DNA of 64,000 nucleotides from a virus. Its lineage: Duplodnaviria; Caudoviricetes. Made by a program: the position numbers and the translations under genes. Under the pieces are notes generated by a model. That model saw nothing but the letters and a program-made list of their open reading frames with translations, searched no databases and was not told where the DNA came from. Of the stretch, positions 1,417 to 28,415 are shown in pieces (positions within the stretch are counted from its first letter, which is position 1; each line of letters begins with the position of its first letter). The DNA lies in the IMG/VR virus record IMGVR_UViG_3300032219_000848, positions 38,178-102,177 of that record; one strand, 5' to 3'.

Positions 1417-2970
1417 TTAGAACTGAGGTATTTCTTCAATCAAGACTGTGCGAGACAAGTCTTCAATAAACACATCACAACGATCTTTCATCCAGATTTC
1501 GTATCCTGGGAATTTGTTAGCACTTGACATACCTTGAGATTTTGCAAATCCTAAGTGGTGACGAGTACCATCGATATAACCCCAAGTCATAGAAGGAGCA
1601 CCCTTCATACGTACTTCACGGATGTTGTTAATCATAGAACCATCAGACATTGGAGAAACGTCAAACACCATAAATACTGGAGTAGACTTCTTGTTTTGTC
1701 CAAATTCTAAGTTAGATTGAGGAAGGTCTAATTCTTTTAAGTGAATTAACTCAACACGACCAGTCTCACGAGTAACCATTGCATCGAATGCAAAGTTGTA
1801 AGTGATGTGTTGTCCTTCTCCTTGCATATAACGATTACCTGAATCAGCCATGAAAGTAAGACCTGAATTCAATGCATCATTTTTCAAAGCTTGTTGGAAC
1901 ACGTCAAAACCAGCTTCGTTAGTGTACATTTTAACACGGCGATCTTTAACATCCACACGTCTGTAGAATAAATCACCAAATACCGAACGAATCAAGTTAG
2001 CAGTGAATTCTCCACGGTTGTATTGTACTAAGTTACCGTTGTTACGCATTCTGTGATAAACACCAGCAGATGTACGCTTTAAGTTTTGTTGAGAACCACT
2101 AGTCTTAACTGTACCTGGCTTAGACCAGATCATACGCTTAACTTTTAATTCTAACATAGACTTACGCATCCAGAATTCAATAAACGGTTCCCATTTAACA
2201 TCATTACGAGTTAAAGGTAATTGGTTACGTCTTTGTGGAGCATATACTAAAATATCTAATGCTTTACCAGAAGCATCAACCATCATCTTATCATCAGCCC
2301 ATTCAGTAATCTTGTGCTCATAACCATATGCAGAACCTAATGATTCAAACATTGTGATTTGCTCACCTAAACGAGGCAATCCTAATAAGTCTTGATCAAA
2401 CTCACCAATAACTGCATCAATTAATTCTAATTCAATACCAAGTTGTAAGAATGTAGAAGAAACGAAATCAACTGTTGGATTATCAGAAATCAAAGTGAAA
2501 GTGTACAAGTAACCTGCGTTGTAAGGAACTGGATCTTTGATAACAAAGAAACGAGGACCATACTGACGAGTACCTACTGATACTACAGCATTCTTAGAGA
2601 ATTCATTAGTATCAATAACTAAAGAAAATTCCTGACCATCAATACCTGGTTTCTCAAAAGCTAGAGTAGTAGCAGGAATGTCAATGACTTTAGGAAATTT
2701 GTAAGGAACTGCGATTTGCCACTTCCAAGCATCACTGTTGTTGTCAATGTAATACGGAGTTGACTTGTTGATCATGTCCAAGAAGTCATTACTATACAAT
2801 GAACTCTGAGTGTACAAGCTGATAATTTTCTTATCGTAGTCTGCAGGCTCAGTTGAGTGAAAGCTTTCCAAGTGGTTAGAATCTGTCAACTTACCAACTG
2901 CACGTTTGTCCATAGACGCAACGCGAGCGTAAGTAAAGCCAGTTAAACCTGGAATTGTTTGAATTGCCAT
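1417..2970 (-). CDS. Major capsid protein (HK97 fold, crAss-like)
   Basis: 517 aa; crAss MCP-like N-terminus (LTDSNHL) and C-terminus (IEDLSRTVLIEE); codon usage suggesting high expression; order TerL-portal-X-MCP. Confidence 0.85.
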   Translation of the reverse strand: MAIQTIPGLTGFTYARVASMDKRAVGKLTDSNHLESFHSTEPADYDKKIISLYTQSSLYSNDFLDMINKSTPYYIDNNSDAWKWQIAVPYKFPKVIDIPATTLAFEKPGIDGQEFSLVIDTNEFSKNAVVSVGTRQYGPRFFVIKDPVPYNAGYLYTFTLISDNPTVDFVSSTFLQLGIELELIDAVIGEFDQDLLGLPRLGEQITMFESLGSAYGYEHKITEWADDKMMVDASGKALDILVYAPQRRNQLPLTRNDVKWEPFIEFWMRKSMLELKVKRMIWSKPGTVKTSGSQQNLKRTSAGVYHRMRNNGNLVQYNRGEFTANLIRSVFGDLFYRRVDVKDRRVKMYTNEAGFDVFQQALKNDALNSGLTFMADSGNRYMQGEGQHITYNFAFDAMVTRETGRVELIHLKELDLPQSNLEFGQNKKSTPVFMVFDVSPMSDGSMINNIREVRMKGAPSMTWGYIDGTRHHLGFAKSQGMSSANKFPGYEIWMKDRCDVFIEDLSRTVLIEEIPQF

Positions 2971-3006
2971 TTGTTTGTTTTGTTTAAATTAAAAAAATAT
3001 TACGTG

Positions 3007-4254
3007 TTATGAAAACCAAGATGTTGGCGTTGATGATTTAGATTTCCCTATACCTTTAGAAGCTTGACGAGCAACCTCTCCAAACAACTCATTTGACTTC
3101 TTAGAGATTCCTGATTTTTGAATTGTTGATAATGTAGGATCCTTTTCTAGGATTTTCAAAAGTAGTGCCACTTTTACCTTCATCTCATGATTCTCAGGAC
3201 GCTTTAAGTCGAGAATGGTTCTATCAAAATCTGTTAATGTTTCTCCAGATCCTGTTTTCCATTTCTCAGCCAAAAGGAAATCTTGTAGTTCACCAGCTAA
3301 TTTTGGGTTAAGAGGAATGCCATCAAACTCTTTAGTTTTTAGCTTCTCTTGTAAAACTGTTGTTACATTTTGTTGATACTGTTGTTTATAAGCAGCTTGA
3401 CGTTGTAACTCTACAGTTCTGTCTTGTTCTAATTTTTGTAGCTTCGCAGCTTCTTTTTTAATTAGAACCTTATGATGTTTTCCAGCAACGCTTTCAAGAT
3501 CACCATAATTTTGAAGTCTTTCAACTTCTGTTGTTATATCTTCAGGATCAAAACCTTGATCAGCTAAAGCTTGTTTAAGTATTGCTATTTGATTTGATTC
3601 TTGAGATAAGTCCATCTCAGAGAAATTTTGAATAGCATCATATGTACCGAAATATTCTTTAGGATTTACACCCTTAACAAAGATAGCATCAAATGCACTT
3701 TGATAGTCTTCTCCAAATTGTCCAATGAAGTTTTGTACCACTTCAATTGCACCTTTTTTTTTCTCAACTTCAAAACGTTCTAAGAACTCTTCTGCAGAAT
3801 TAACAGAAGTATCTTCTTCTCCATCTTCTTTTGTAAAAACACCAAGTTTAAAAAGATCTCGTGATAGAGCAGTGAACTGATTACTTGCTGCATCATCATC
3901 TTCTTCTTCTTCTTCTTCTGGAGCATCTTCAGCTTTTTTAGCCTTAGGAGTTACAGCAGGAACATCATCTTCTTCCTCGTCATCATCATTTCCTAATAAG
4001 AAATCTTGAATTGATTTAGAAGCATCTTCTTCTTTTTTATCATCAGCATCATCTTCTGTTTTAGTAGAAGGTGCTTTTTTAGTGGGAGCAACTGCTGCAG
4101 GTTGTGCATCAATCTTTTGTACATCATCAGGATCAGCGGTAGAAGTATCAGGACTCATTAAGTCATTTAATAACTCTGCGTTTCCCATTCCCATTTCCAT
4201 GGTGTTCTCAATGCTAAAATTCCCAAATCCTGGGTTTTCTAAATTATCGGCCAT
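3007..4254 (-). CDS. Acidic scaffold-like protein between portal and capsid
   Basis: Very D/E-rich N-half, coiled-coil C-half; conserved position in crAss-like head modules. Confidence 0.6.
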   Translation of the reverse strand: MADNLENPGFGNFSIENTMEMGMGNAELLNDLMSPDTSTADPDDVQKIDAQPAAVAPTKKAPSTKTEDDADDKKEEDASKSIQDFLLGNDDDEEEDDVPAVTPKAKKAEDAPEEEEEEDDDAASNQFTALSRDLFKLGVFTKEDGEEDTSVNSAEEFLERFEVEKKKGAIEVVQNFIGQFGEDYQSAFDAIFVKGVNPKEYFGTYDAIQNFSEMDLSQESNQIAILKQALADQGFDPEDITTEVERLQNYGDLESVAGKHHKVLIKKEAAKLQKLEQDRTVELQRQAAYKQQYQQNVTTVLQEKLKTKEFDGIPLNPKLAGELQDFLLAEKWKTGSGETLTDFDRTILDLKRPENHEMKVKVALLLKILEKDPTLSTIQKSGISKKSNELFGEVARQASKGIGKSKSSTPTSWFS

Positions 4255-4394
4255 ACGTAGTTTAATTTTTAATTGGTTTTTCGATATAAAAGTATATTAC
4301 ATTAATTTAATAACAAAGAGTAAATCTGCTATGGAGCTGAATATTCTGCATAATATAGCATTAATGAAATTTACTCTAATCTAATTGATTAGAA

Positions 4395-6977
4395 TTACTT
4401 GGATTTAGAACCTCTATTACGTGCATTAATTTTTGCAATTTCTAAATCGTTTGCTTGATTTTTTAAATCTGTAGCAATCTTTTCACGCTCTATTTGCATT
4501 TTTTGAGCATCTGCTCTTGTTTTATTAGCAATGTCTGCCATCTTAGTTTGATAATCTTTAGAAGCTTTAGATTGTTCACTTGCTAATTTATCTATTTCTA
4601 ATACATCAGCAGTACCAGAAGTGTCTACATCTGTTAAAGGACCTGCTTTAGATTCAGCAGCAATCATTGCAATTTCAATCTTATTAATTCTATCTAACTC
4701 ATTTTGATAATCATCATGAGCAATTTTTTCAGCTTGCATCTGTTGAGCTTGTTGTATTTGAGCTTGAGCAATTTGTTGTTGTTGCTCTAGTTGCTGCTGT
4801 TGTTGTTGCATCTTCTGATCTTCAAGTTGTTCTTGACGCTCTTTAAGAGTCTTAAACACCTTCTTCATATCACGAATAGAGTTTGTGCTATATAATTCAA
4901 TAATGTCATGTAATGAACCACCATTTTGTAAAACAGCTTGAGATAATCCTCTAATCTCATTAAACATTTGTTTATCTTCTGGACGATTAGTTAAGAACAC
5001 TTTAAGATCTCTAAACTTAAGATCTGTTCCATTCACTTGTACAAATGCTGATTCTCCTTCAGATGTAATGTATGAAATAGTAGATTGTGGTTTAGCACTT
5101 TCTACATATAATGAAGCATCAATGATTGCTTGGTACAACTGACCTAGTACATACTCGTGTGCTACGAATAATGGTTCTGTTTGCGAGTAAGATTGTGTGA
5201 TGGCAGTGTTAGTACCTGTAGCAGTTTCAGAAGCTGAAACAGATCCCATACGCTGTCTAGACATACCAATAAGTTCCCAACATTCATTCTTTAACTGGAT
5301 AGCTAAATTATAACGAGATTGGATTTCTTGTGTACGTGTTAAATCAATATCACGGAATTGATTGAATGAACTTGGAGACTTTAAGTTCTCTGGACTATCA
5401 TCAATAAACATAACACCTCTATTACGTGCTTCCATCTCCCATATGTCAAGAGCATCTTGTGCATCTCCATCTTTAGGAATAGGAATGTGTCTGATAGATG
5501 TTAAATAAACCTTACCAACTTCTTTCTCTAATAATTTGTACAATTGATTCATACAAACATTATAAAGAACCTGGAATGGTTTCATTAAGTCTACTAAAGA
5601 TTTAGCTTCCGTATTCTTAACCTCGTGCACTACACCAATGATTGGGCAGTAGTTTAATAACTTAAATGGTTTAATGTGATAAATATCTGGTCCAATCTTT
5701 ATACCCTGATACCATTGATTGATCCATCCCCACTCTAATGATTGTTCTGTAGGAATTGTACCTTTCTTATAATTCTCATCAACTAGCATTGACTGCTCAT
5801 TACCCATTTCATCTGTGTAGATGAGTTTACCAATTTTCTTTTTAGAAATCCAATAACATCTTACAACAACATATTTATATCCGAATGAAGAAACATTATT
5901 TGTTAGTCCTAAAAAGTCTTTCAAACCATCATTGTTTTCTTTCATTTCTGATTCAATAATCATACGTGTTTGTAACACAGCAGGATCGTATGTATCATAT
6001 TGTACAGAGTCTGTACCTGGAATTGCATCTGGATTACCTAAGTTAGATTCACGAACATTAATCAAACCATAGTCTTGTAATGATGATCTTAAATGATCAA
6101 TTTCTTCTTTTGTAATATCTGGAATAGCTTCAATAATCTCAGACAATTCCATAACTTGTACAGTGCCTGCAGCATACGCGCCTTGTGCACGTCCTGTTGG
6201 ATCTGAAATGTATTTACGATCTGGTGTAGATAGGAACCATGTATTCTTAGGATTGGCCACTTCTATATTATATCCCACCTTAGAGTTATCCTCATATATG
6301 TGATAATATTCACGTGCAGAAATTAACATATCACGAAATGCATCTTCTGATTTTTCTTTAAGAACAAAATCTGCTTTCTGACATGTAAGTACATGGTTAG
6401 CCCATTTCTCTGCTATAGATGTATAAGAGTCAAGTTCATCTTGAACTTCTTGCATTGTCATTTGTTGTAATTGCTCTTCCTCAATTTCTTCTCCTGCAAT
6501 TGCTGCTTTTTCTAAAATCTTTTGTTTAGCTTGGTTCATTACAAACTCTTGTAAAATACCAGTTTTAAACTCTAGTTCTTCTGCTTTAGAATCATCATCA
6601 AATGCTTTAACACGGAAAGCATCAGGACGCTTAGAGATCTCGCCTACAAGCTCGTTTATTGGAGTTGTAATGATAGAATAATGTTTTACATATGCTGGTA
6701 AAGCTAGATCAGCTGTAAGCATATCTGTAAAACTTCTCACTTCAGGTTCTTGATAAAAATCTTCTGGACGTAAAATGCCTTTTATTAAATCGTAATTCTT
6801 AACAAACGTATCACGATTTTTAATATACTCCGAATAGGCTTTATTCGCAAAATAGTCCATTGTGTTTTTAATCCAACTTTCATCTTGCTTTTCCTTTTCA
6901 GTTTTGAATTGATCAGGGAAGATGTTTAGATATGCATACCTAATTGTTGCATCTTTTGTATATCTAATAATTGCCAT
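4395..6977 (-). CDS. Portal protein
   Basis: 860 aa directly after TerL; Q-rich coiled-coil C-terminus; SLVDLMKPFQ..YN and ETATG motifs typical of P22/crAss-like portals. Confidence 0.85.
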   Translation of the reverse strand: MAIIRYTKDATIRYAYLNIFPDQFKTEKEKQDESWIKNTMDYFANKAYSEYIKNRDTFVKNYDLIKGILRPEDFYQEPEVRSFTDMLTADLALPAYVKHYSIITTPINELVGEISKRPDAFRVKAFDDDSKAEELEFKTGILQEFVMNQAKQKILEKAAIAGEEIEEEQLQQMTMQEVQDELDSYTSIAEKWANHVLTCQKADFVLKEKSEDAFRDMLISAREYYHIYEDNSKVGYNIEVANPKNTWFLSTPDRKYISDPTGRAQGAYAAGTVQVMELSEIIEAIPDITKEEIDHLRSSLQDYGLINVRESNLGNPDAIPGTDSVQYDTYDPAVLQTRMIIESEMKENNDGLKDFLGLTNNVSSFGYKYVVVRCYWISKKKIGKLIYTDEMGNEQSMLVDENYKKGTIPTEQSLEWGWINQWYQGIKIGPDIYHIKPFKLLNYCPIIGVVHEVKNTEAKSLVDLMKPFQVLYNVCMNQLYKLLEKEVGKVYLTSIRHIPIPKDGDAQDALDIWEMEARNRGVMFIDDSPENLKSPSSFNQFRDIDLTRTQEIQSRYNLAIQLKNECWELIGMSRQRMGSVSASETATGTNTAITQSYSQTEPLFVAHEYVLGQLYQAIIDASLYVESAKPQSTISYITSEGESAFVQVNGTDLKFRDLKVFLTNRPEDKQMFNEIRGLSQAVLQNGGSLHDIIELYSTNSIRDMKKVFKTLKERQEQLEDQKMQQQQQQLEQQQQIAQAQIQQAQQMQAEKIAHDDYQNELDRINKIEIAMIAAESKAGPLTDVDTSGTADVLEIDKLASEQSKASKDYQTKMADIANKTRADAQKMQIEREKIATDLKNQANDLEIAKINARNRGSKSK

Positions 6978-9001
6978 TATGTAAACAGTTTATGTTTTTT
7001 TGTTTCTGAAAATAGACCATTACTACTTCCAAATAATTTATTATTTTTCTTCTTAGCGTACATAGCTTGTACTCTAACATCACCACCTGCACCAATTCTA
7101 CCCATTATAGGATCAAGTTTCATAGCCATAGCCACTGCAAGTTCTGCTGCAATAATACGGTCAAAGTTACCTTCTTCATTATACTGAATCATTTCTTCTA
7201 ATAATACAGGATCAAAAATTTTAACCATACCCTTCACTTCAGATTTAATCTCTCCCTCTTCATTTTTTTCTGAGATGATAACTTCTTCTGTATATTTTTT
7301 AAGACATCCATGTAAGAAATCTCTAATCTTTTCAGAAGATCTATGTATTCCATATTCACGTCTCACTGTTGTATTAGGTACAACTTCTTTCAACCACTCT
7401 GGTTGCTTTTCTAAATAATGAGCATCGTTCTTAGAAATCATATAATCAATGAAAGACATCTCATCATTCTCGACAAGAGCTCTTGCATTATAGTATTTAA
7501 TGAGGAGACGAGCTTGCTCATCCCATGTTTCCTTTTTGTCTGGACGTGCACAATAGGATGCAACGAACATATCTTGATACTTTTCATTTGTAATTGAGTG
7601 CATACGTTTATATATGTATACAGATCCTAACGATGTTGAATATGCAGCTTTACCTTGACGGTACGGATCGACTCCTGCTACATATAGTCCGTAAGGTGGG
7701 GATTCTATAGGAAACTCATACACTATTACAGGAGCATCCTTCATGTCTGAGTTTTTAAGAGGGAAGTTGGAGATGGGTAGCTTGTCTGTGAATTCATGCT
7801 TAACACCTTCTCCATCATCATATAGCACAACTGGTGTACCTGTTCGCTCTTGAGATAAGAGTCTGGCCTTTTGTCGTTTTGCTCCCTCTATATCAAAGAT
7901 GTTACTGTCCTCATTTAAGAATATATCATCCACCTCTTGTGGATAGTACATCTTCTCTTTTAAATAAGCAATTCTATCTCCTGCTTTCTTGAGTCTTTCT
8001 AAATTTTCGTTGGTTATTTTTGTAGCTACTTCTTCATCAGAAACTAACATTTTCACATTATGTAAATCATCACCTTTAGGTAGGTCTAAATACGCTCCTA
8101 ATGTAGAGTCGTATTTAGCTTCCATTCTAAACTTATGTGAAATGAATAACCCGTGTATACGAGATTCATCTTTGGCATTATTGTATTCTAAGAAATTGTA
8201 GTTACCTACATCAAACATCAAGGACTTAGCGTCCATGAATTTCTTCATATCCCCACCTGTTCCCGTAAGAATTGGTGCACAACCCCAGCCAAAGGGTGTT
8301 GTGAAACCTGGAACAGCCGCTTGAAAACCTCGTAGGAAACTTCCTTTACCAATTTCATCTATAATTAATCTTCTAGGCTTTGTACCTGCAATAGCCTCTT
8401 CGTTATTACCTTCGTCAAGGTTACGTATTAATATTTGTGAAAAGGGGATACGTTGTCCTCCTCTTGTTTTTACACCTAGCGTTACTTGATTCTTCCAATT
8501 ATCCTCAACTCTTTGCCACTGCCATGCAGCAGGAAGATGATTAAGTCCTTTGTCAATCTTGTCTGTAATTAGCTTTATATCAGCTGCATTTAGTCCAGCT
8601 ATAATGTTCTGTGAGTTCTCATCAAAGGTTGCTCCATGTGACACATATGATGCCTCAATCACACTCTTAGCAAAACGTCTGATTCCTAAAATAACTAAAC
8701 CTTTACGTTCTTTTTGAGCTCTATCAATTTCTGTTGATACCACCCACTCATTATCTCTTAAAGAAGGGTTAGCATATTTCTGTGCTATTCTACCATATTC
8801 ATCTATAACATCCACCTCTGTATGCCATGCATTTAGATGCCAATATAGAAAAGGATTAATATATACATCTCCCATCATTGCACCATTCTTACACAGCTCC
8901 TCATGAAATGCAAAAAAAGAATCATACTCCTCAGATTCTTTATCTGGAAGACGCTTCTGGTTCATTAACCAATCCTTATAATCTATTTTAAGAAGTTCCA
9001 C
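6977..9001 (-). CDS. terL: Terminase large subunit
   Basis: Walker A-like RRFAKS, Walker B LIIDEIGK, motif III TGTGG, nuclease GVDPY and FDRIIA. Confidence 0.9.
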   Translation of the reverse strand: MELLKIDYKDWLMNQKRLPDKESEEYDSFFAFHEELCKNGAMMGDVYINPFLYWHLNAWHTEVDVIDEYGRIAQKYANPSLRDNEWVVSTEIDRAQKERKGLVILGIRRFAKSVIEASYVSHGATFDENSQNIIAGLNAADIKLITDKIDKGLNHLPAAWQWQRVEDNWKNQVTLGVKTRGGQRIPFSQILIRNLDEGNNEEAIAGTKPRRLIIDEIGKGSFLRGFQAAVPGFTTPFGWGCAPILTGTGGDMKKFMDAKSLMFDVGNYNFLEYNNAKDESRIHGLFISHKFRMEAKYDSTLGAYLDLPKGDDLHNVKMLVSDEEVATKITNENLERLKKAGDRIAYLKEKMYYPQEVDDIFLNEDSNIFDIEGAKRQKARLLSQERTGTPVVLYDDGEGVKHEFTDKLPISNFPLKNSDMKDAPVIVYEFPIESPPYGLYVAGVDPYRQGKAAYSTSLGSVYIYKRMHSITNEKYQDMFVASYCARPDKKETWDEQARLLIKYYNARALVENDEMSFIDYMISKNDAHYLEKQPEWLKEVVPNTTVRREYGIHRSSEKIRDFLHGCLKKYTEEVIISEKNEEGEIKSEVKGMVKIFDPVLLEEMIQYNEEGNFDRIIAAELAVAMAMKLDPIMGRIGAGGDVRVQAMYAKKKNNKLFGSSNGLFSETKKHKLFT

Positions 9002-10879: not shown

Positions 10880-11298
10880 ATGTAGTTGGCATTCTATAGA
10901 ATTATAGACGCTATATTAAGAATTATATTTGGTAAATACAAATGAAAGAGAAAATATTATTAGAGAAATCTCTATAGTGTACATATCATACCATCTAATT
11001 TCTTTCACTCTAAACGATGCACCTATTCCAAAGTCTGTCAATGTATTCACTTTAAAATATATCATATATAAAAAGTTTTTATTTACTAGCCCCCCTTTAT
11101 CCCCCCAAAGGTAATAGAACTTTTTGAATATGCAAAATTTTTGTTCGGGGTGAAAATTTAAAATTTTTTTACATCCCCCCTAGGCATTATGTTCATGAGA
11201 GAGGAGTCCACTTCAGATGATATCCCCTTAGGGTAATTAGGAGGGTGACGTTATCCCCCTGATATCGTTGGCAGACGTATAACTGTCATATTACCCAT
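10880..11298. promoter_or_regulatory. Divergent non-coding switch region between late (minus) and early (plus) transcription
   Basis: Strand switch; ~420 bp without a credible ORF; C/G runs and AT-rich inverted segments. Confidence 0.55.
11266..11288 (+). promoter_or_regulatory. Compact pseudoknot-like leader element (TTGGCAGA family), copy 1
   Basis: CG-TT-GGCAG-A-CG-TATAA-CTGTC, 10 nt before ATG 11299. Confidence 0.5.
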
Positions 11299-11499
11299 AT
11301 GAAAAATTATCAAAAAGTACAAAGAGTGTTCCAAGTATTTCTACTAGTCATCTCACTCTTAGCATTAGCACAGATTTGTTATTTAGTCACAACTAGAGAC
11401 TATAGTAACAATGATCTGATTCTCATTGGCATCTTCTGCATGCCAATGATTATGTCAGTGTTCCTTGCAATTGATTTACTAAAACAAAAACTAAACTAA
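11299..11499 (+). CDS. Small two-TM membrane protein (first early gene)
   Basis: Two hydrophobic segments. Confidence 0.6.
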   Translation: MKNYQKVQRVFQVFLLVISLLALAQICYLVTTRDYSNNDLILIGIFCMPMIMSVFLAIDLLKQKLN

Positions 11500-11543
11500 C
11501 AACTAAACCCTTGGCTGGGGGGCAATACTCAGCCACAATTATT

Positions 11544-11885
11544 ATGTTATTCCCAATCTTAGTAACAAAAGTGGTAGCAAGACATACTTACTATCTTGGC
11601 CATTCACACACAGACTTAGGATACTACAGAGTGGTCATTGATAATGATGTGATGCTTAATGACTTTGGACATTCAAGAGATTATCCATTGTTCGATCGTG
11701 ATTGTGCTGACATCAAGCCATTCGTAGCACTATGTAAGCTTGATAAGTATGAGCGATGGTCAGTGAAGAGAGTAGATCATGACTATCGTAAGTTCACAGA
11801 ACATCACCAAGTATGGAAAGATTCGTTCAGCAGATCCAACACCTTTAGTATTACAGTTAAATCAATCAATTCACAATTAAATTAA
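11544..11885 (+). CDS. Hypothetical early protein
   Basis: Likely start ATG 11544 just after the leader hairpin at 11513-11534. Confidence 0.6.
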   Translation: MLFPILVTKVVARHTYYLGHSHTDLGYYRVVIDNDVMLNDFGHSRDYPLFDRDCADIKPFVALCKLDKYERWSVKRVDHDYRKFTEHHQVWKDSFSRSNTFSITVKSINSQLN

Positions 11886-11891
11886 ATTAAA

Positions 11892-12155
11892 ATGAAAAAT
11901 CAATTCGAGTACCAATCAATCTATTTTACAGATGAATACATGATGGAAGCAGATTATGACATGGCATTAATGATGAAAGATGACTGCATCAAACAGTTAA
12001 TGGCATTGCGAACATTGCTACCATTAATGTTACCTGATGAAACATTGCACTTCAGAGAGCGAGTTAGAAATAATCTAAAAGCTGCACAAGCTGACATTGA
12101 TCATTATGAATCAGTTCATGGCAAGCCAAAAGGTTCATTAGAATCAACCATTTAA
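11892..12155 (+). CDS. Hypothetical early protein
   Basis: A-rich leader, operon packing. Confidence 0.6.
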   Translation: MKNQFEYQSIYFTDEYMMEADYDMALMMKDDCIKQLMALRTLLPLMLPDETLHFRERVRNNLKAAQADIDHYESVHGKPKGSLESTI

Positions 12156-12206
12156 TCAATTCACAACTATTCCTAGCGTGAGGGCTAAATCACGCATATT
12201 AAACAC

Positions 12207-12545
12207 ATGTACTTAATAACAATCTATTACGGATCCTTTGAAAATTACGGATCATCTGAACATCCTGAAGTATTGTTCACTGCTTATGATAAAGATCATA
12301 AAAAGGTAATCATTAACACAGAGTTATTACCTAAAGAATTACTGACTGAGGATCAAAGCGTTCGCATGCCATTCCATTGTTACACATCATGTAGAAAGAG
12401 GAATGATAAATGGGAAAGAATTGCAGACAGATGCTTTAGTAATTACGAAGATGCATTTGAATACGCAAACATGATTATTGAAGGTCTTGAATACGAACTT
12501 CATGAACTTACAGGAATAGTTCAGCAGAATAAATCTTTAAATTAA
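12207..12545 (+). CDS. Hypothetical early protein, probable diverged member of the local paralog family
   Basis: YxI..GSF, PFHCY and ER...F motifs echo 13702/14263. Confidence 0.55.
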   Translation: MYLITIYYGSFENYGSSEHPEVLFTAYDKDHKKVIINTELLPKELLTEDQSVRMPFHCYTSCRKRNDKWERIADRCFSNYEDAFEYANMIIEGLEYELHELTGIVQQNKSLN

Positions 12546-12597
12546 TTAATCAATTCACAACCAACCCTTGGCAGAGGTCAACTGCCGTAATACAAAT

Positions 12598-13299
12598 ATG
12601 AATGCATACATAATTCAATCAGGACATTTCTCTAAAGCAGGGAATTTCATGGGAATCTCAGTAAAAGGTGAAAGGATTCACATCTACAAGAAGGACATTA
12701 TTAGACTATTTCCACAAGTTGGAATAGTCTATCGATGCTTGGGACAATACGAGAAGGAACTAGTCAAGTTACCATTCTACTGTCTAGCAGAAGAGAAGAC
12801 ATTTGATCAAATTGATTTCGATGGAAATAAGACAGGAGAGAAATTTACTAGACTTACAGCCATTGAGATACGTGAGCATGAGTACGAGATTAAGACTGTT
12901 CTAGTTAATTCTAGAATCGTGAGTCTAGAGATGGACTTACATTGCTGTAAACAAGACTATGATAAGTTACAGGAAGAGTATGATGCACTTGTAGCAAAAG
13001 TAGAAGACTATAATGCTAATGCTGAACTAAATGAATGCAGGATGGTGATTGATCATCTCACAAATCAGATTGAGGATCTAGAAGAAGAGAATGATAAACT
13101 TACTCGTGAGCTACAAACAGCAAACTGGAACTATGAGTATGCTCAGTCAGAACGTGAAAGACTAGAGCTATTATGCAAAGAGCATGAGTATACAATAATA
13201 GAACTGTTAAAAGATAATGATGAACTAGAGAAGTACAAGAAAACATTTGAGACAGTTCTGACATCATATCATATTAATCAATTAATTAATAACGTTTAA
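12598..13299 (+). CDS. Paralog-family protein with a long C-terminal coiled coil
   Basis: Start ATG 12598; GxFS..GNF.G...GERIHIY, PFYC, TGEK.TRLTA shared with 13702/14263. Confidence 0.7.
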   Translation: MNAYIIQSGHFSKAGNFMGISVKGERIHIYKKDIIRLFPQVGIVYRCLGQYEKELVKLPFYCLAEEKTFDQIDFDGNKTGEKFTRLTAIEIREHEYEIKTVLVNSRIVSLEMDLHCCKQDYDKLQEEYDALVAKVEDYNANAELNECRMVIDHLTNQIEDLEEENDKLTRELQTANWNYEYAQSERERLELLCKEHEYTIIELLKDNDELEKYKKTFETVLTSYHINQLINNV

Positions 13300-13312
13300 A
13301 CAATAAATAACA

Positions 13313-13615
13313 ATGGCAAATTACCTAACATTATTTGACAAGACCTCTAAGGAGGCAGCATCTCTCATTAGCATTGATGAGAGAATCTGTAAAGAAGTGT
13401 ATCACGTAGAACCTCATGATAAAGATTGGGGATCTGATGTGTTTGATTGGTACAATACAATTGGCTTCCAATTATCAACTGGTAAAAGCATAGAAGAAGT
13501 TAGACAACACTATGTCACTTCTGACTTGTGGACAGAAGAACTTCCTACAATACTTCCTGTAATAGAGTTCTTAGAGAATAATTACACACCAAAAGCATCA
13601 TGGCGTTGGTCATAA
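13313..13615 (+). CDS. Hypothetical protein
   Basis: ORF with A-rich leader. Confidence 0.6.
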   Translation: MANYLTLFDKTSKEAASLISIDERICKEVYHVEPHDKDWGSDVFDWYNTIGFQLSTGKSIEEVRQHYVTSDLWTEELPTILPVIEFLENNYTPKASWRWS

Positions 13616-13701
13616 TGTTCATTAGAAAATCCTTTTAATAAAATAAATTAATTAATAAACAACTAAAATGGGAACAGGAGAAATAGCTGAACAAAAAAAC
13701 A

Positions 13702-14085
13702 ATGAAGAATTACGTAATTAACAACGGATCATTTACTGCACAAGGTAACTTCTCAGGATACACTGCCATGGGAGAACGCATTCACATGTATGCTAGACAG
13801 ATGTCATCACTAGACTGGGAAGCAAATGAGGATGTGAAGTATCCATTCTATGCAATTGCAAAGGAGAAAGAGATTGAGCCACTAGGAACTGATGGCAAGC
13901 CAACTGGAGAGAAGACAATGCGATTAACAGCATTGTCAGTATTCAAGAGTAAAGCTGACATCACGAGTGCTAGATCCGAAGCAGCATTGCTTGACATTGA
14001 GATTACTAAATCCATTCAAGAGCAGGCAGAGAAGGTTGGCATTAGTCAAGATGTCCTTGACGTGCTACTAGCAGCATCAGTGTAA
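13702..14085 (+). CDS. Paralog-family protein A (127 aa)
   Basis: About 80% identical (26 differences in 127 aa by hand count) to 14263-14646. Confidence 0.8.
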   Translation: MKNYVINNGSFTAQGNFSGYTAMGERIHMYARQMSSLDWEANEDVKYPFYAIAKEKEIEPLGTDGKPTGEKTMRLTALSVFKSKADITSARSEAALLDIEITKSIQEQAEKVGISQDVLDVLLAASV

Positions 14086-14093
14086 TGCTAAAC

Positions 14094-14154
14094 GGGAGAG
14101 GAAATGTTCTCTCCCATTACTAACCAAGAGAGGGGCACATGCCTCTCTCTTTTT
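14094..14154 (+). terminator. Tandem hairpins, second with U-tract
   Basis: GGGAGAG..CTCTCCC then AGAGAGGGGC..GCCTCTCTCT-TTTT. Confidence 0.6.
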
Positions 14155-14262
14155 CCCTCGTCTTGTTCATCAGACTACATCCCTATAGATATGGGAGTAT
14201 AACTAATATGTAGTTATATATCTAAAACTTATATTTATAAACAATTTAAAATTAAAATTATC

Positions 14263-14646
14263 ATGAAAAATTACGTGATTAACAATGGTACGTTTACAGG
14301 TCAAGGAAATTTCTCAGGCTATACAGCTATGGGAGAGCGTGTGCACATCTATGCTCGTCAGATGGCTTCATTAGGATGGGAGATGAGCGAAGATGTAACT
14401 TTTCCTTTCTATTGCATTGGTGCAGAAAAGGAAATTGAGCCATTAGGTTTAGATGGTAAGCCTACAGGTGAGAAAGCAATTCGTCTAACTGCTCTATCTG
14501 TATTTAAAAACAAGGCAGATATCACTCAAGCTCGTAGTGAATCTATTATGTTAGACATAGAGATTAACAAATCTATTGCTGAACAAGCTGAGAAAGTAGG
14601 TATTAGCCAAGAAGTGTTAGATACCTTATTAGCTGCTTCTATTTAA
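14263..14646 (+). CDS. Paralog-family protein B (127 aa)
   Basis: Near-duplicate of 13702-14085. Confidence 0.8.
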   Translation: MKNYVINNGTFTGQGNFSGYTAMGERVHIYARQMASLGWEMSEDVTFPFYCIGAEKEIEPLGLDGKPTGEKAIRLTALSVFKNKADITQARSESIMLDIEINKSIAEQAEKVGISQEVLDTLLAASI

Positions 14647-14659
14647 TAGTGTGTGTAAT

Positions 14660-14692
14660 ACAAGAGGGGGAATAAATCCCTCTCTTGTTTTT
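14660..14692 (+). terminator. Intrinsic terminator
   Basis: ACAAGAGGGGGA..TCCCTCTCTTGT-TTTT. Confidence 0.65.
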
Positions 14693-14929
14693 ATATATAT
14701 AGTTAAACAGAAGATTATATAGGTAAAATAATAAATACATATATAATATTTGGTTTTAAAAAGTTTTTACGCGGAGCTTACCAAATATTCTTTGGTTTTT
14801 ATATGTTTGGGAAAGCATTAAATGGTGGTAGTGTAACCCTTCAACAGATAAATAGGTAAATTGAATAAACCTAAAAAAGACATAAGTTTAAATTATATAG
14901 CATTAATAACCCTTTTAAATAACAAAGAT

Positions 14930-15157
14930 ATGTATGCAAGCAGAATGGGAGTTCATAATATGTTCTCTAATCAAAATGAGTCTGAATATGTCATTATTAA
15001 TAATGAACATAATAGTCATCGTGCAGCTCAGTTTAATATAGCTTACGAAGGTGGGTTTTTAACTCATGTAGGTGATGGCTTTTTTAAAGTAAAGCGTATT
15101 GTTGCCAATAATCTAGGTCTTGTCATTATGTGTGATGCAGATCAAAGAATGTATTGA
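14930..15157 (+). CDS. Hypothetical protein
   Basis: Likely start ATG 14930 after CCTTTTAAATAA leader. Confidence 0.5.
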   Translation: MYASRMGVHNMFSNQNESEYVIINNEHNSHRAAQFNIAYEGGFLTHVGDGFFKVKRIVANNLGLVIMCDADQRMY

Positions 15158-15161
15158 GTAT

Positions 15162-15193
15162 AAGGGAGAATAATTCTCCCTTTTTTTTTTTTT
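15162..15193 (+). terminator. Intrinsic terminator
   Basis: AAGGGAGAA-TAA-TTCTCCCTT followed by a long T run. Confidence 0.75.
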
Positions 15194-15216
15194 CAACCTT
15201 TTAAATAAATAAAGAA

Positions 15217-15405
15217 ATGAATAGAGAACATATACATAAACGTATTAATAAGATTAGTAATAGATTACAGAAGTATAAAGCTAACTATGATACAATGTAT
15301 TCTTCACAATATAAACTAGAGAAGAACAGAATAGCTCGTGTTGATCTTGTTATTAGTAGAAATGAGAAAATGTTAGCTTATTATCAATCTTTACTTATTG
15401 AGTAA
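15217..15405 (+). CDS. Small basic hypothetical protein
   Basis: CCTTTTAAATAA leader. Confidence 0.55.
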   Translation: MNREHIHKRINKISNRLQKYKANYDTMYSSQYKLEKNRIARVDLVISRNEKMLAYYQSLLIE

Positions 15406-15502
15406 TGCATCAGTCTATCTTCCCAAAGGATAGCAAACATACGTACCTCCAAGAATAGCCTATTGTGGTGATAGGCAACGTGCGTTTGAATGCAGAGGGA
15501 GA
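15406..15502 (+). ncRNA. Structured ncRNA candidate (multi-stem, possible pseudoknot)
   Basis: Nested stems TGCAT/ATGCA, CTATC/GATAG, CAAACATACGT/ACGTGCGTTTG, GCCTAT/ATAGGC; loop TCCC complementary to 3' GGGA. Confidence 0.45.
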
Positions 15503-15640
15503 TTTTATACAAGCTACCTTAGTAGCATACTTTTATTAGTTGGCAGATCTAGTTATCAAGAACTGTCTATCTTTTATGGTGGAAGGATAAAACCATTATT
15601 TATAACATTGTATTTTCAAACCTTTTAAATAATAACAAAA

Positions 15641-15949
15641 ATGAAAACATTTAATGATTTAGAATTTACTGAAATAGTAAATGACTATACTGTTAATGGT
15701 AAAAGAGCACGTATGATGTTTGATAATGGATATGGTGTATCTGTTGTACAATCAGACATGACATATGGTGGTAAAGAAGGACTATATGAATTAGCTGTAT
15801 TAGATGATGAAGAAGGTGGTCAGATCTATTATACATCAATAACAATGGATGTGTTAGGTTGGCTTACAGAAGACGATGTAACAACACATATGTCTGAAAT
15901 ACAAGGCTTACCATTATTAACAGCTGAAACTGATAAATCAACCTTTTAA
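15641..15949 (+). CDS. Conserved phage hypothetical protein
   Basis: FDNGYGVSVV...YGG.EGLYELAVL motif common in phage early genes. Confidence 0.7.
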   Translation: MKTFNDLEFTEIVNDYTVNGKRARMMFDNGYGVSVVQSDMTYGGKEGLYELAVLDDEEGGQIYYTSITMDVLGWLTEDDVTTHMSEIQGLPLLTAETDKSTF

Positions 15950-15960
15950 ATAATACATAT

Positions 15961-16167
15961 ATGTTAATTACAATGACTAGTATGATATCAAAAACTACAT
16001 CCACTAAGGATGTTGATATTACAATAGAACAACTATTTAGAATAAAGCATGAAAAAGAGCTTATACAAAATGTTGTTCCACATCTGTCTATAGAAGATAG
16101 AGAGTTTTTAATATCTGGTATAACATCAGAAGAATGGAAAGAATTGTTTCACACTATAGAAGACTAA
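15961..16167 (+). CDS. Conserved phage hypothetical protein
   Basis: LIQNVVPHLS..DREFLISGIT..EW motif. Confidence 0.65.
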   Translation: MLITMTSMISKTTSTKDVDITIEQLFRIKHEKELIQNVVPHLSIEDREFLISGITSEEWKELFHTIED

Positions 16168-16257
16168 ATGAAAAACGAACTTATGGAATTGTTATGTACC
16201 ATCATCTTCATATTGATTGTTGTGATGTTTAGTATTCTTATTGTTTCAACTCTTTAA
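16168..16257 (+). CDS. 29-aa single-TM peptide (not in ORF track)
   Basis: Starts immediately after the previous stop; MKNELMELLCTIIFILIVVMFSILIVSTL. Confidence 0.45.
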   Translation: MKNELMELLCTIIFILIVVMFSILIVSTL

Positions 16258-16272
16258 ACTTTTTAAATCATT

Positions 16273-16476
16273 ATGAAAGCAATTATTATCATTCGTTGGT
16301 TCATCATTATATATATAGTGACATTTTTGTGTCTTGATTTGTACATCATCACTAATTCAGATGTTGTTACAAAGTATGGCTGGGATAATATACAATTAAC
16401 ATTATTGTGGCTATTTGCTTTTATGGCTGCATCTGTGTTATATGTTACAATTAGTACAAACCCAAGGAGACAATAA
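16273..16476 (+). CDS. Small two-TM membrane protein
   Basis: Two hydrophobic helices. Confidence 0.6.
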   Translation: MKAIIIIRWFIIIYIVTFLCLDLYIITNSDVVTKYGWDNIQLTLLWLFAFMAASVLYVTISTNPRRQ

Positions 16477-16536
16477 TGTCTCTTTGGTTTAAATTAGTAA
16501 ACAGATTTTTTATTCACATATTTTAAATAAACAAAA

Positions 16537-16752
16537 ATGAGAGCACTTTTAAAAAAACAAGAAGACAAAAAAGAAATAGTTAGATATTGTACAATTGTAT
16601 CGCCTGTACAAGTAGAAGAAGCACGAAAATCAGGTGATTCTAGAGCAAAGATTCTTGTAGAAACCCACATAAATACACGTGGTAAAAAACAAGAACCGTT
16701 CTACAAAAAATTAGATACAATTGAAGTGGAGTATTCACAACTGAAATTTTAA
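16537..16752 (+). CDS. Hypothetical protein
   Basis: TTTTAAATAA leader. Confidence 0.55.
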   Translation: MRALLKKQEDKKEIVRYCTIVSPVQVEEARKSGDSRAKILVETHINTRGKKQEPFYKKLDTIEVEYSQLKF

Positions 16753-16851
16753 TTGTATAAGAAATTCACCATTACCTAAAGCACAAAGTCTCGGTGTGAG
16801 TAGGGAGAGAGCAAATCATAGTTATACAAGTTGGTGTGAGTATAACTATAT

Positions 16852-16956
16852 AGTCAGGTGGCGGAATAATGGTAGACGCAGGAGTTCTGAAAGCTCCACG
16901 TAAGATGTAGCGAGAGCTTTGATCATCTCATGCAGGTTCGAATCCTGTCCTGATTA
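16852..16956 (+). tRNA. Atypical class II tRNA or tRNA-like gene (Leu-type body, apparent TGA anticodon, oversized variable arm)
   Basis: Acceptor AGTCAGG/CCTGATT, D-arm GCGGAATAATGGTAGACGC, anticodon stem GGAGT/GCTCC, T-arm GCAGG-TTCGAAT-CCTGT; no encoded CCA. Confidence 0.7.
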
Positions 16957-16989
16957 CTAAAATTATTTTTTAACTTAAATTACACACAC

Positions 16990-17217
16990 ATGTCAAATCA
17001 CGTATCATTGTATTCTTCTCTATTACATAGAAAAGGATATGCAAAGAAGTCAGCTTGGTTAGAATTTATATTCAATGACCAATGTACACACATTGAACTT
17101 ATTGTTCAAGGAGTTACTTACAGTTTTTCAGATGTTAGTCATCTACATACAGACGAAAGTCTTATGCATGATGAGATATTTGATGATAACTGTCTGTTAG
17201 TTCCTACAAACATATAA
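16990..17217 (+). CDS. Hypothetical protein
   Basis: ORF with A/C-rich leader. Confidence 0.5.
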   Translation: MSNHVSLYSSLLHRKGYAKKSAWLEFIFNDQCTHIELIVQGVTYSFSDVSHLHTDESLMHDEIFDDNCLLVPTNI

Positions 17218-17299
17218 GATTTATGTGTGTAGTCCTGAGCATGACACAAAACTGCTCAATTATTAATTCTTTTACATTTAATATAGCATTCTTATAAAT

Positions 17300-17470
17300 A
17301 TGAAATATTTAGATAAGTTTATGGAAGTATACATTTGGTTAGCTATGGCTATTCTTATGTTGTTAGCATGCGTACAGCACATTGATGCTGGTAATACATA
17401 CACAGGATTTTGTATGTTGTTTATAGGAATAGTATTCTTATATATGTTTAAAAAGAATAGGTTTAATTGA
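17300..17470 (+). CDS. 56-aa two-TM protein (not in ORF track)
   Basis: MKYLDKFMEVYIWLAMAILMLL...FCMLFIGIVFLYMFKKNRFN. Confidence 0.5.
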   Translation: MKYLDKFMEVYIWLAMAILMLLACVQHIDAGNTYTGFCMLFIGIVFLYMFKKNRFN

Positions 17471-17498
17471 TTTTCATAGAAGGGTTTAAGCGTAAAAT

Positions 17499-17530
17499 AA
17501 AGGGCTGATGTTATACGTCAGTCCTTTTTT
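17499..17530 (+). terminator. Intrinsic terminator
   Basis: AAAGGGCTGATG..CGTCAGTCCTTTTTT. Confidence 0.7.
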
Positions 17531-17557
17531 GTTTTCCCTTCTAATAACAAACATTTT

Positions 17558-17848
17558 ATGGAACAATTAAAATCTGGTGTTAAGATTAAATTTATAGTGG
17601 GTGATGATTTCTATGTATATGAAGTTAATCCTAGTTATTTAGAATTAAAAAAAACTTCAGGAGAATATAGTAATGCTGCTATATTCAACGCTCTTGGTAT
17701 TAGTGAAGATGAAAAATACGAATTAGCTACAAAATATTATGGCTATCCTGTATCACAAGGTGTTTGGCCTTCATATAGAGATTATGATACAGCTACAGAG
17801 TTAGTTAAGCATTTATATGATTTATGTAATATTCACAATACTAAATAA
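17558..17848 (+). CDS. Hypothetical protein
   Basis: ORF. Confidence 0.55.
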   Translation: MEQLKSGVKIKFIVGDDFYVYEVNPSYLELKKTSGEYSNAAIFNALGISEDEKYELATKYYGYPVSQGVWPSYRDYDTATELVKHLYDLCNIHNTK

Positions 17849-28357: not shown

Positions 28358-28415
28358 TATATTTAATTTTACATTAAACTAACGCGGGAACAGGTAAATC
28401 TGAACAGATGTATTT

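Follow-up and report, generated by a model that had tools for sequence, protein, structure and literature searches.

Minimal H-type pseudoknots are represented by the preQ1-I riboswitch aptamer and by the frameshift knots of luteovirids. In phages T4 and T2, the leader of gene 32 carries an H-type pseudoknot that serves as a translational operator and lies ∼40 nucleotides (nt) or more from the start, cooperative binding of gp32 requiring a lattice, and T4 gp32, gp43 and RegA are all translational repressors. Small hairpins also act at the DNA level, as in the early promoters P1–P3 of phage N4, which have stems of 5–7 base pairs (bp) and 3-nt loops on the template strand. Here we analyse a window of 64 000 nt (bases 38178–102177 of the 102-kb IMG/VR virus record IMGVR_UViG_3300032219_000848, from an uncultured crAss-like phage), in which an initial annotation had marked six short elements (E1–E6) between positions 11266 and 17258 as one possibly undescribed family of pseudoknot-like RNAs in early-gene leaders.

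All six strings are present as written, and in each the flank of the stem is complementary to the loop, as had been proposed, the best register differing from the one first given. The elements do not, however, form one family: there are at least three groups, and E1–E5 do not match the motif defined below for E6 at up to 3 mismatches. We lean towards reading the six as sense-strand RNA structures at cistron boundaries with three origins. E1, E4, E5 and E2 would be paralogous leader modules heading independently initiated genes in a hyperplastic early operon; E3 is a conserved hairpin in a long non-coding stretch; and E6 belongs to a widespread 35-nt H-type pseudoknot located between cistrons in phages, mobile elements and bacteria. 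As an undescribed cis-acting RNA class, the case is strong for E6 and tentative for the leaders, which show few compensatory changes and come from two lineages.

17232..17258, plus strand: E6, H-type pseudoknot GUC-C-UGAGCA-U-GAC-ACAAAAC-UGCUCA, 14 nt after the stop at 17217 and 41 nt before ATG 17300.

E6 fits with 0 mismatches the motif UCCUNAGCAUGA-N4-AAACUGCU, in which the 2–4 nt before UC are complementary to N4 (here GUC pairs with GAC), and is the sole copy of this motif in the genome. The 35-nt consensus, [NN]UC-C-UGAGCA-U-GA[N'N']-AAAC-UGCUCA, folds as a 4-bp helix (two fixed and two free pairs), a linker C, a helix of 5–6 bp, a linker U and the third loop AAAC. A search of IMG/VR with a pattern that fixed only CCUNAGCAUGA-N4-AAACUGCU gave at least 131 stretches with the motif, on very diverse contigs and often several per contig. 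The window copy was aligned with 129 distinct 37-nt segments from 136 matches, giving 130 rows. The base preceding CC is U in 130/130 rows, though the pattern left that position free. In the short helix (S1), pair 8–21 is formed in 129 of the 130 rows (GC 44, AU 42, UA 26, CG 17, other 1) and pair 7–22 in 108, with six pair types, while pair 5 of the long helix is formed in 125 (GC 89, AU 22, GU 10, CG 2, UA 2). The covariation score was 0.291, compared with 0.100 for shuffled alignments (0/500 shuffles reached 0.291), and was at most 0.096 when the partners were slid. For the E6 type the fold is thereby observed, alongside position, strand, conservation and covariation. The E6-like elements at loci L007–L010 and L015 differ from E6 by a G-C to A-U change in the long helix and a G-C to U-A change in the short one, and in a Staphylococcus phage copy the otherwise fixed U-A pair is reversed to A-U. 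The short-helix covariation claimed at the outset is massive across these 130 sequences; among the six elements themselves it comes down to one orthologous double change for E6 and one for E2, with none for E3.

The placement of the knot relative to reading frames is also regular. A frame of at least 30 codons is open upstream in 89 of the 134 IMG/VR matches with enough flank, and 70 of these 89 stop 4–15 nt before the knot, using all three stop codons and most commonly leaving 5 nt (23) or 6 nt (12). The spacers of 4–15 nt fall into three phases (34, 21 and 14 of the 69 counted). The next open start is mostly 20–29 nt downstream of the knot (25 cases), and in 61 cases there is none within the flank. 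Genome contigs gave at least 123 stretches with the motif; among the matches listed are many from Saccharibacteria, other Patescibacteria, Firmicutes, Actinobacteria, Thermodesulfobacteriota and Bacteroidota, together with four loci from two archaeal metagenome-assembled genomes. An upstream frame of at least 40 codons is present for 49 of 127 genome-contig copies, again with a mode of 5 nt (16/49), and in 7 copies the first UGA of the motif itself closes the upstream frame. Intrinsic terminators come after several copies, and Rfam scans of 20 loci placed the start of a same-strand tRNA within ∼15 nt downstream of the knot in 3. By eye, what is seemingly one tRNA with anticodon GUC (Asp) follows the knot within ∼15 nt at L099, L104, L105, L125, L157, L160 and L165; Rfam confirmed the tRNA in the three GUC-tRNA loci scanned. 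Upstream proteins could seldom be recognised, and those that could belong to mobile-element types (DUF3768 three times, RadC, DUF2958), with DUF932 found below the Pfam cut-off and an HGTP_anticodon domain as the exception.

BLAST with three variants placed the motif in stretches without annotation, both in two human-gut crAss-like phages and in cultured phages of Synechococcus, Nostoc, Microcystis, Mycobacterium, Arthrobacter, Paracoccus, Bacillus, Moorella, Lactobacillus, Streptococcus and Staphylococcus. Carriers include Mycobacterium smegmatis phage Labelle, Paracoccus phage ParMal1, Synechococcus phage S-RIM4 and Lactobacillus phage phiEF-1.1. Weak matches to Vibrio, Escherichia and Pseudomonas phages fell within genes and were set aside as probable chance. 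In the five cultured phage records inspected, the knot lies between genes and in the sense of the flanking genes (5/5). Comparison with Rfam 15 gave 0 matches in the window at the gathering scores, none on E1–E6 at E ≤ 5 in 10900–17600, and none for the motif in 20 IMG/VR and 20 genome loci. We found no published description of the motif, the 8495 candidate RNAs of PMC10690425 lying outside this comparison. That the E6 type is a sense-strand pseudoknot RNA, apparently undescribed, is strongly supported by these sequences.

What such a knot might do can be approached by comparison. With the preQ1-I aptamer and the luteovirid knots it shares a length of ∼30–35 nt, a variable first helix, a first loop of 1–2 nt, invariant linkers and an A-rich last loop that in those RNAs crosses the minor groove; it differs in matching no Rfam PreQ1 family, in having no slippery site or overlapping frame, and in a 6-bp second helix whose sequence is conserved. 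The modal 5-nt spacer after stop codons would suit a stimulator of frameshifting or readthrough, though the spacers fall in all three phases and tRNAs or terminators follow many copies. Compact, on the sense strand and bordering a cistron or tRNA on its 5' side in phages of diverse hosts, the knot also recalls, by analogy, exoribonuclease-resistant RNAs and 5' stabilisers. The invariant linkers, the occurrence in hosts that share no phage protein, the position at the seam between a stop and the next gene, tRNA or terminator, and the spacing together suggest a self-contained RNA device. At the modal spacing, a ribosome on the stop codon would hold the first helix in its entry channel. The knot could be an exonuclease barrier that gives neighbouring cistrons different lifetimes, or an element met by the terminating ribosome, or, less probably, a small ribozyme or aptamer.

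The four leader elements are a separate case.

11266..11288, plus strand: E1, upstream short-helix arm (S1a) CGU, linker U, stem (S2) GGCAG/CUGUC with one G-U pair, loop ACGUAUAA; ends 10 nt before ATG 11299.
11509..11535, plus strand: E4, S1a CCU, linker U, S2 GGCUGGG/CUCAGCC, loop GGGCAAUA; ends 8 nt before ATG 11544.
12172..12195, plus strand: E5, S1a CCU, linker A, S2 GCGUGA/UCACGC, loop GGGCUAAA; ends 11 nt before ATG 12207.
12566..12587, plus strand: E2, S1a CCU, linker U, S2 GGCAG/CUGCC, loop AGGUCAA; ends 10 nt before ATG 12598, the start of an OB-fold plus coiled-coil gene.

Because simple 5-bp hairpins abound (the window has 930 on its plus strand), a strict class was used: stem of at least 5 bp with at least 3 G-C and at most 1 G-U pair, loop of 6–9 nt, sense strand. 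The whole 102-kb genome has 124 such hairpins (61 + 63 on the two strands) against 125 greedy calls of open reading frames (ORFs). Only 4 of the 124 end 3–25 nt before a called ATG, and these are E1, E4, E5 and E2, all inside 1.3 kb, with loops of 7–8 nt and the gaps given above counted from maximal stems. Their start-proximal placement is far from chance. The early annotation had placed four elements 9–11 nt before an ATG, and these are the four; its description of all six as early-gene leaders fails for E3 and E6, which are not start-proximal. Among the operon's genes, each that follows a gap of at least 44 nt has a leader hairpin or, in the case of gene 13702, a box in the equivalent slot, and the two that follow gaps of 6 and 13 nt have no leader element.

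13670..13693, plus strand: GGGAACAGG-N8-CUGAACA box in the leader-hairpin slot, 8 nt before ATG 13702, with no stable fold (−1.1 kcal/mol).

A box of the form GGGAACAGG-N5-10-CTGAACA stands 8–10 nt before three ATGs in all, the others being at ∼28375–28400 (before ATG 28416) and at 7018–7042 of the related contig L002.

Four leaders and two orthologs share one register: C-N-U, a 1-nt linker, the stem, R-N'-G at the start of the loop and an A-rich remainder. This arrangement has the geometry of a classical H-type knot. Wobble (G-U) pairs are found in the S2 helix of four elements (E1, E4, E3 and the E2 ortholog) and in the S1 helix of three (E4, E5 and the E4 ortholog); on the opposite strand they would read A-C, hence a coding-strand RNA is favoured, as the wobbles had been taken to indicate. 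Three IMG/VR protein scans gave one related contig (L002, identical to L003, L004 and L012), and a metagenome scan recovered it once more (L085), along with L086 and L087, short contigs of that lineage, and a weak, unrelated match (L088). In the E4 ortholog the flanks are preserved and the loop still opens with GGG; the stem, GGUAGU/ACUACC, has three pairs altered on both sides. The E2 ortholog keeps GGCAG with the partner CUGUC (G-U), and its short helix has gone from CCU...AGG to CUU...AAG, one compensatory change (C-G to U-A). Hairpins of the E4 type stand ahead of unrelated genes, of 72 amino acids (aa) in L002/L087 and 114 aa in L086, the latter product being the ortholog of that of window gene 11544 (90% identical). 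A covariance model (R1) was built from four of six leader elements, excluding E4 and E5, which MAFFT had misaligned. Its best non-training matches were E5 (20.1 bits, E 0.06) and E4 (16 bits, E 0.6), so two excluded elements were recovered, one hairpin-less leader ranking between them; the leader at 15928–15963 was aligned with the hairpin columns deleted. At E < 1, R1 matched nothing in the loci around TerL of 79 relatives (1.06 Mb), and a pattern of the E2 type, run over all of IMG/VR, gave 7 loci, namely the L002 contig and 6 chance matches in coding sequence. The leaders thus appear private to two phage lineages.

Several results weigh against reading these elements as folded boundary RNAs. 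For the E6 type, the collection pattern fixes the core, which accounts for part of the conservation seen there and leaves only the flanks and the N positions unbiased; and the window's own E6 sits 14 nt, not 5 nt, after its stop. For the leaders, the pseudoknot helix of E1, E2, E4 and E5 is just 3 bp, and a 3-bp match between flank and loop (at most one G-U) is found in 43 of 161 strict hairpins of the genome, or 22 of 161 if only Watson-Crick pairs are allowed. Matches to a generic pseudoknot descriptor (15 and 17 on the two strands) were judged not enriched over 20 first-order Markov simulations, one strand each (mean 9.15, range 5–17). Folding energies are ordinary for E1, E2, E3 and E6 (z = −0.62, −1.13, −1.30 and −1.16), and only E4 (−2.47) and E5 (−2.80) stand out. 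In the L002 lineage the E1 ortholog has no downstream arm, GGCAG pairing instead with an upstream CUGUC, and the ortholog of the E5 gene has no hairpin. Just two lineages carry the leaders, and compensatory events are therefore few. Since the short helix is statistically weak, its support must come from comparison. We regard E1, E2, E4 and E5 as real, positioned leader hairpins, which the data support; a pseudoknot helix in them is plausible, if weakly supported, on the basis of sequence.

The leader module would run as an A/C-rich leader, CCU-U, a 5–7 bp G-C stem, a loop of 7–8 nt with a purine start and an A-rich end, 8–11 A/U-rich nt and the AUG. The four private leaders share the architecture of the E6 type and not its sequence, and their favoured role would be to protect or present the initiation region of independently translated cassettes. 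More generally, compact knots may be RNA boundary elements that stop exonucleases or meet a terminating or initiating ribosome, setting stability or translation cistron by cistron, a role to which we give a little less than an even chance. A broader version is doubtful: that phages and mobile elements almost universally carry the E6 knot, 5 nt behind stops, as a hitherto undescribed device (a terminating-ribosome element or exonuclease-proof boundary, even self-cleaving or ligand-sensing), with the four leaders as home-grown analogues, perhaps docking where the Shine-Dalgarno helix normally sits, in a host that seemingly makes no use of such pairing. No Shine-Dalgarno-like purine runs were seen in the window's leaders. 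The E6 type is short and widespread, with unusually clean covariation and no Rfam 15 counterpart, and its fixed distance from stops points to a general way of setting cistron boundaries.

The principal alternative is that the elements act as DNA, and it draws on the genome's setting. The minus strand encodes TerL, portal and major head protein (1417–9001), and the plus strand has replication genes from 19 kb onward; the six elements follow closely on the divergent junction, among small genes of the plus strand. Cultured phages offer only distant TerL relatives, the nearest being Leptolyngbya phage Lbo-JY46 (39.8% identity) and Cellulophaga phages (∼31%); Lbo-JY46 has a tRNA array where this genome has its divergent region. 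Outside the window (G000:C1:6684-18404, minus strand) lies an ORF of 3906 aa with a DFDID motif, likely the virion RNA polymerase.

11085..11265, plus strand: divergent control region before the first plus-strand gene, with two C-runs (GCCCCCC-TTTA-TCCCCCC-AAAGG), a AAAATTTTTTT block, CATGAGAGAGGAGTCC and repeated ATCCCC.

This region is conserved and was aligned with 11 relatives, the 12 sequences giving no consensus fold in RNAalifold. The double C-run is kept in 15 of 81 TerL-linked regions, and the 15 closest relatives have a C7 form, GCCCCCCC-TTAT-CCCCCCC-AAAG. In 38 distinct relatives, a block of ∼75 nt precedes the first plus-strand gene (...AGACCCCUUCCAAC...ACCCCAC...AAUUUGnnnGGUU-GGGG-N3-5-CCCC..., with UAAAAAACAGAAAAAAUG at the start in many), and its G4/C4 hairpin, the sole RNAalifold consensus structure, never varies and lies 25–45 nt before the gene. 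Among L005–L084 the block lies ∼2.0–2.7 kb upstream of TerL. We regard it as a candidate for the clade's early promoter or operator. In some relatives the nucleotides before GGUU are UUGGCUGG or UUGGCAGG, pairing with a downstream AGCCA or CUGC; the same sequences form the 5' arms in E4 and in E1/E2. The leader modules resemble the outer arms of the related phages' conserved first-gene leader and may be shortened copies of that arm. The test of the outer helix was weak (cognate mean 11.9 versus 11.2 for non-cognate pairs; 248 of 10 000 permutations as high).

On the DNA-level explanation, the hairpins would be folded-DNA promoters, or terminator-promoter cassettes, for an injected virion RNA polymerase of the crAss type, each cassette yielding its own transcript with a very short leader. 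The DFDID motif is a mark of such polymerases, and the phi14:2 study reports that the only templates used by its enzyme are single-stranded or denatured DNA, that the sequences upstream of early transcripts share no common motif, and that no early promoter motif is known (10.1101/2020.03.07.982082). The window, by comparison, supplies precisely placed, mutable elements. The genome encodes the requisite DFDID protein, every 5' arm of S2 begins with G, mRNAs would be near-leaderless given the fixed 8–11 nt to the ATG, cassettes of the form hairpin-TTTTAAATA-N9-ATG exist in relatives, and the invariant G4/C4 hairpin precedes their first gene. They share with the N4 promoters the form of small hairpins ahead of early genes, in a phage likely to inject its own RNA polymerase as N4 does. 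The suggestion of N4-type hairpin promoters fits poorly, however: the loops are of 7, 8, 8, 8, 11 and 16 nt rather than 3, and the G-T pairs of E1, E4, E3 and the E2 ortholog favour the coding strand, template-strand hairpins of E1, E4 and the E2 ortholog having A-C mismatches. An interleaved 3-bp helix with an A-rich third loop is a feature of RNA, and the E6-type motif also occurs in phages and bacteria without such a polymerase. The long loops and the restriction of G-U pairs to the coding strand weaken the DNA-promoter explanation; given the polymerase's taste for single-stranded DNA and the cassette design of the relatives it is the main rival still standing, and an unlikely one.

Less likely again is that the knots are protein-bound translational operators, a phage protein, for example the three-copy OB-fold early protein, binding the hairpin or knot at the start region and repressing several cassettes. 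The early operon is as follows.

11299..14085, plus strand: operon of seven small genes (66, 113, 87, 112, 233, 100 and 127 aa), with no family match for any product.
14127..14148, plus strand: terminator-like hairpin at the end of the operon.

An N-terminal OB-fold domain is common to the 233-aa and 127-aa products, and three paralogous early genes (13702–14085, 14263–14646 and 12598–12900, plus strand) encode an OB-fold domain plus a helical hairpin. The 127-aa family is modelled as an OB fold plus helices (AlphaFold pLDDT 88); the leading VIA rows (Z 7.0–6.5) are cold-shock, S1, SSB and other nucleic-acid-binding OB domains over residues 1–84, with unrelated rows further down the list. The family has 222 homologs and no Pfam domain, is the first early gene in several relatives and gave no match in cultured phages. 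An operator role would suit the hairpins of 5–8 bp with 7–8 nt loops that abut the initiation region, and E2 lies ahead of one of the genes for this predicted OB-fold protein. The gene 32 leader offers a parallel: there too a phage early or middle leader holds a compact H-type pseudoknot whose first loop is 1 nt, and unstructured A/U-rich RNA comes after it. There is no likeness in sequence, however; the stems differ between copies; the unstructured leader is ∼10 nt (a lattice of just 8–11 nt), compared with roughly 40 nt for gene 32; the other elements precede unrelated genes; E6-type knots follow stops and precede many unrelated genes and tRNAs; and the OB match is middling, with a Foldseek E of 0.007 at best. 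The gene 32 pseudoknot of T4/T2 is cited in PMC10690425. We rate the operator role for compact knots, and equally a ligand-sensing or self-cleaving role for the E6 type, as quite improbable.

The leader modules also move with gene cassettes, much in the manner of PeSLs (promoter-early stem-loops), and the surrounding repeats bear on this. The sequence ATCAATTCACAA occurs exactly 3 times, one copy being at 11865 as the initial annotation had it.

11865..11876, plus strand: ATCAATTCACAA copy 1; strain X4 has 434 extra bases at 11881–11891.
12155..12166, plus strand: ATCAATTCACAA copy 2, left edge of the E5 cassette.
12549..12560, plus strand: ATCAATTCACAA copy 3, right edge of the E5 cassette.

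The contigs compared with 11050–14200 came from four related DNA runs. Among the differences listed, contigs of X3 and X5 (two runs) join 12153 to 12540, removing exactly one ATCAATTCACAA-to-ATCAATTCACAA unit, that is E5 and its gene, and contigs of X2 join 12151 to 13274. The contigs of many relatives stop 2.3–2.9 kb from TerL, just beyond the control region, as expected of a strain-variable stretch. The leaders travel with gene cassettes that strains gain and lose at intergenic repeats. The PeSL cassettes of T4-type phages are described as gained and lost by recombination at repeated intergenic stem-loop motifs (PMC2839356). Here too, repeated intergenic composite motifs with a stem-loop flank small orphan genes in a hyperplastic region, and indels fall at the motif. 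PeSLs differ in having a sigma-70-type promoter and a terminator hairpin, whereas the window hairpins have no U-tracts and stand 8–11 nt from the ATG. Sigma-70-like sites are not enriched (37 versus 37.5 ± 5.2 in shuffles) and none lies at the leaders, Bacteroidota-type promoters being judged by eye. A terminator scan of E1–E6 listed solely E4, through a T-rich tail, CAATTATTAT, that runs into its ATG, so the lack of a U-tract noted originally holds for the other five.

It could be argued from the strain joins, the 434-nt insertion, the contig ends and the PeSL precedent that the intergenic repeats serve only as patches of homology at which cassettes are shuffled, the hairpins playing no part in regulation. 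This is very improbable: the joints fall in the A/T-rich repeats and not in the hairpins, matched-pair changes preserve the E4 stem, and the distance to the ATG is tightly fixed. ToxI-like antitoxins, also suggested at first, fit poorly, there being no tandem repeats and only single copies 240–2900 nt apart, each before a different gene.

E3 stands apart from both the leaders and E6.

15537..15567, plus strand: E3, stem GGCAG/CUGUC with a 16-nt loop, inside a 235-nt non-coding stretch.

It has one ortholog, in L010, at 90% identity over 68 nt and without compensatory change. The ATG 8 nt downstream opens a frame of merely 4 codons in the window; in L010 it would open one of 117 aa, which crosses the E6-like element and looks like an artefact of the ORF caller, so this ATG was rejected as a gene start. 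The stretch itself (15406–15640) is free of genes and contains conserved pieces, ATGCAGAGGGA as well as E3. In L009, L010 and L015 it runs directly into the E6-like knot; in the window six small genes and a tRNA-like gene intervene. The tRNA-like gene (16852–16956, plus strand, 105 nt) has a very long insertion in the variable-arm region; it was missed by ARAGORN and by the default Rfam run, and scores 40.6 bits against Rfam tRNA (gathering score 29) with permissive filters.

Two further boxes recur before small genes. A AACCTTTTAAATAA box, with the ATG 19–20 nt after CC, heads four or five of them (14911, 15197, 15621, 15942 and 16259, plus strand). It is the leader type of the hairpin-less 15928–15963, and in relatives occurs on the plus strand only, often straight after a G-C hairpin. 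The sequence TAATATAGCATT is present at 17283–17294 and 14896–14907, in the first case 5–8 nt before ATG 17300, and abuts the ATG of several relatives' small genes; it may be a start signal or a promoter of near-leaderless mRNAs.

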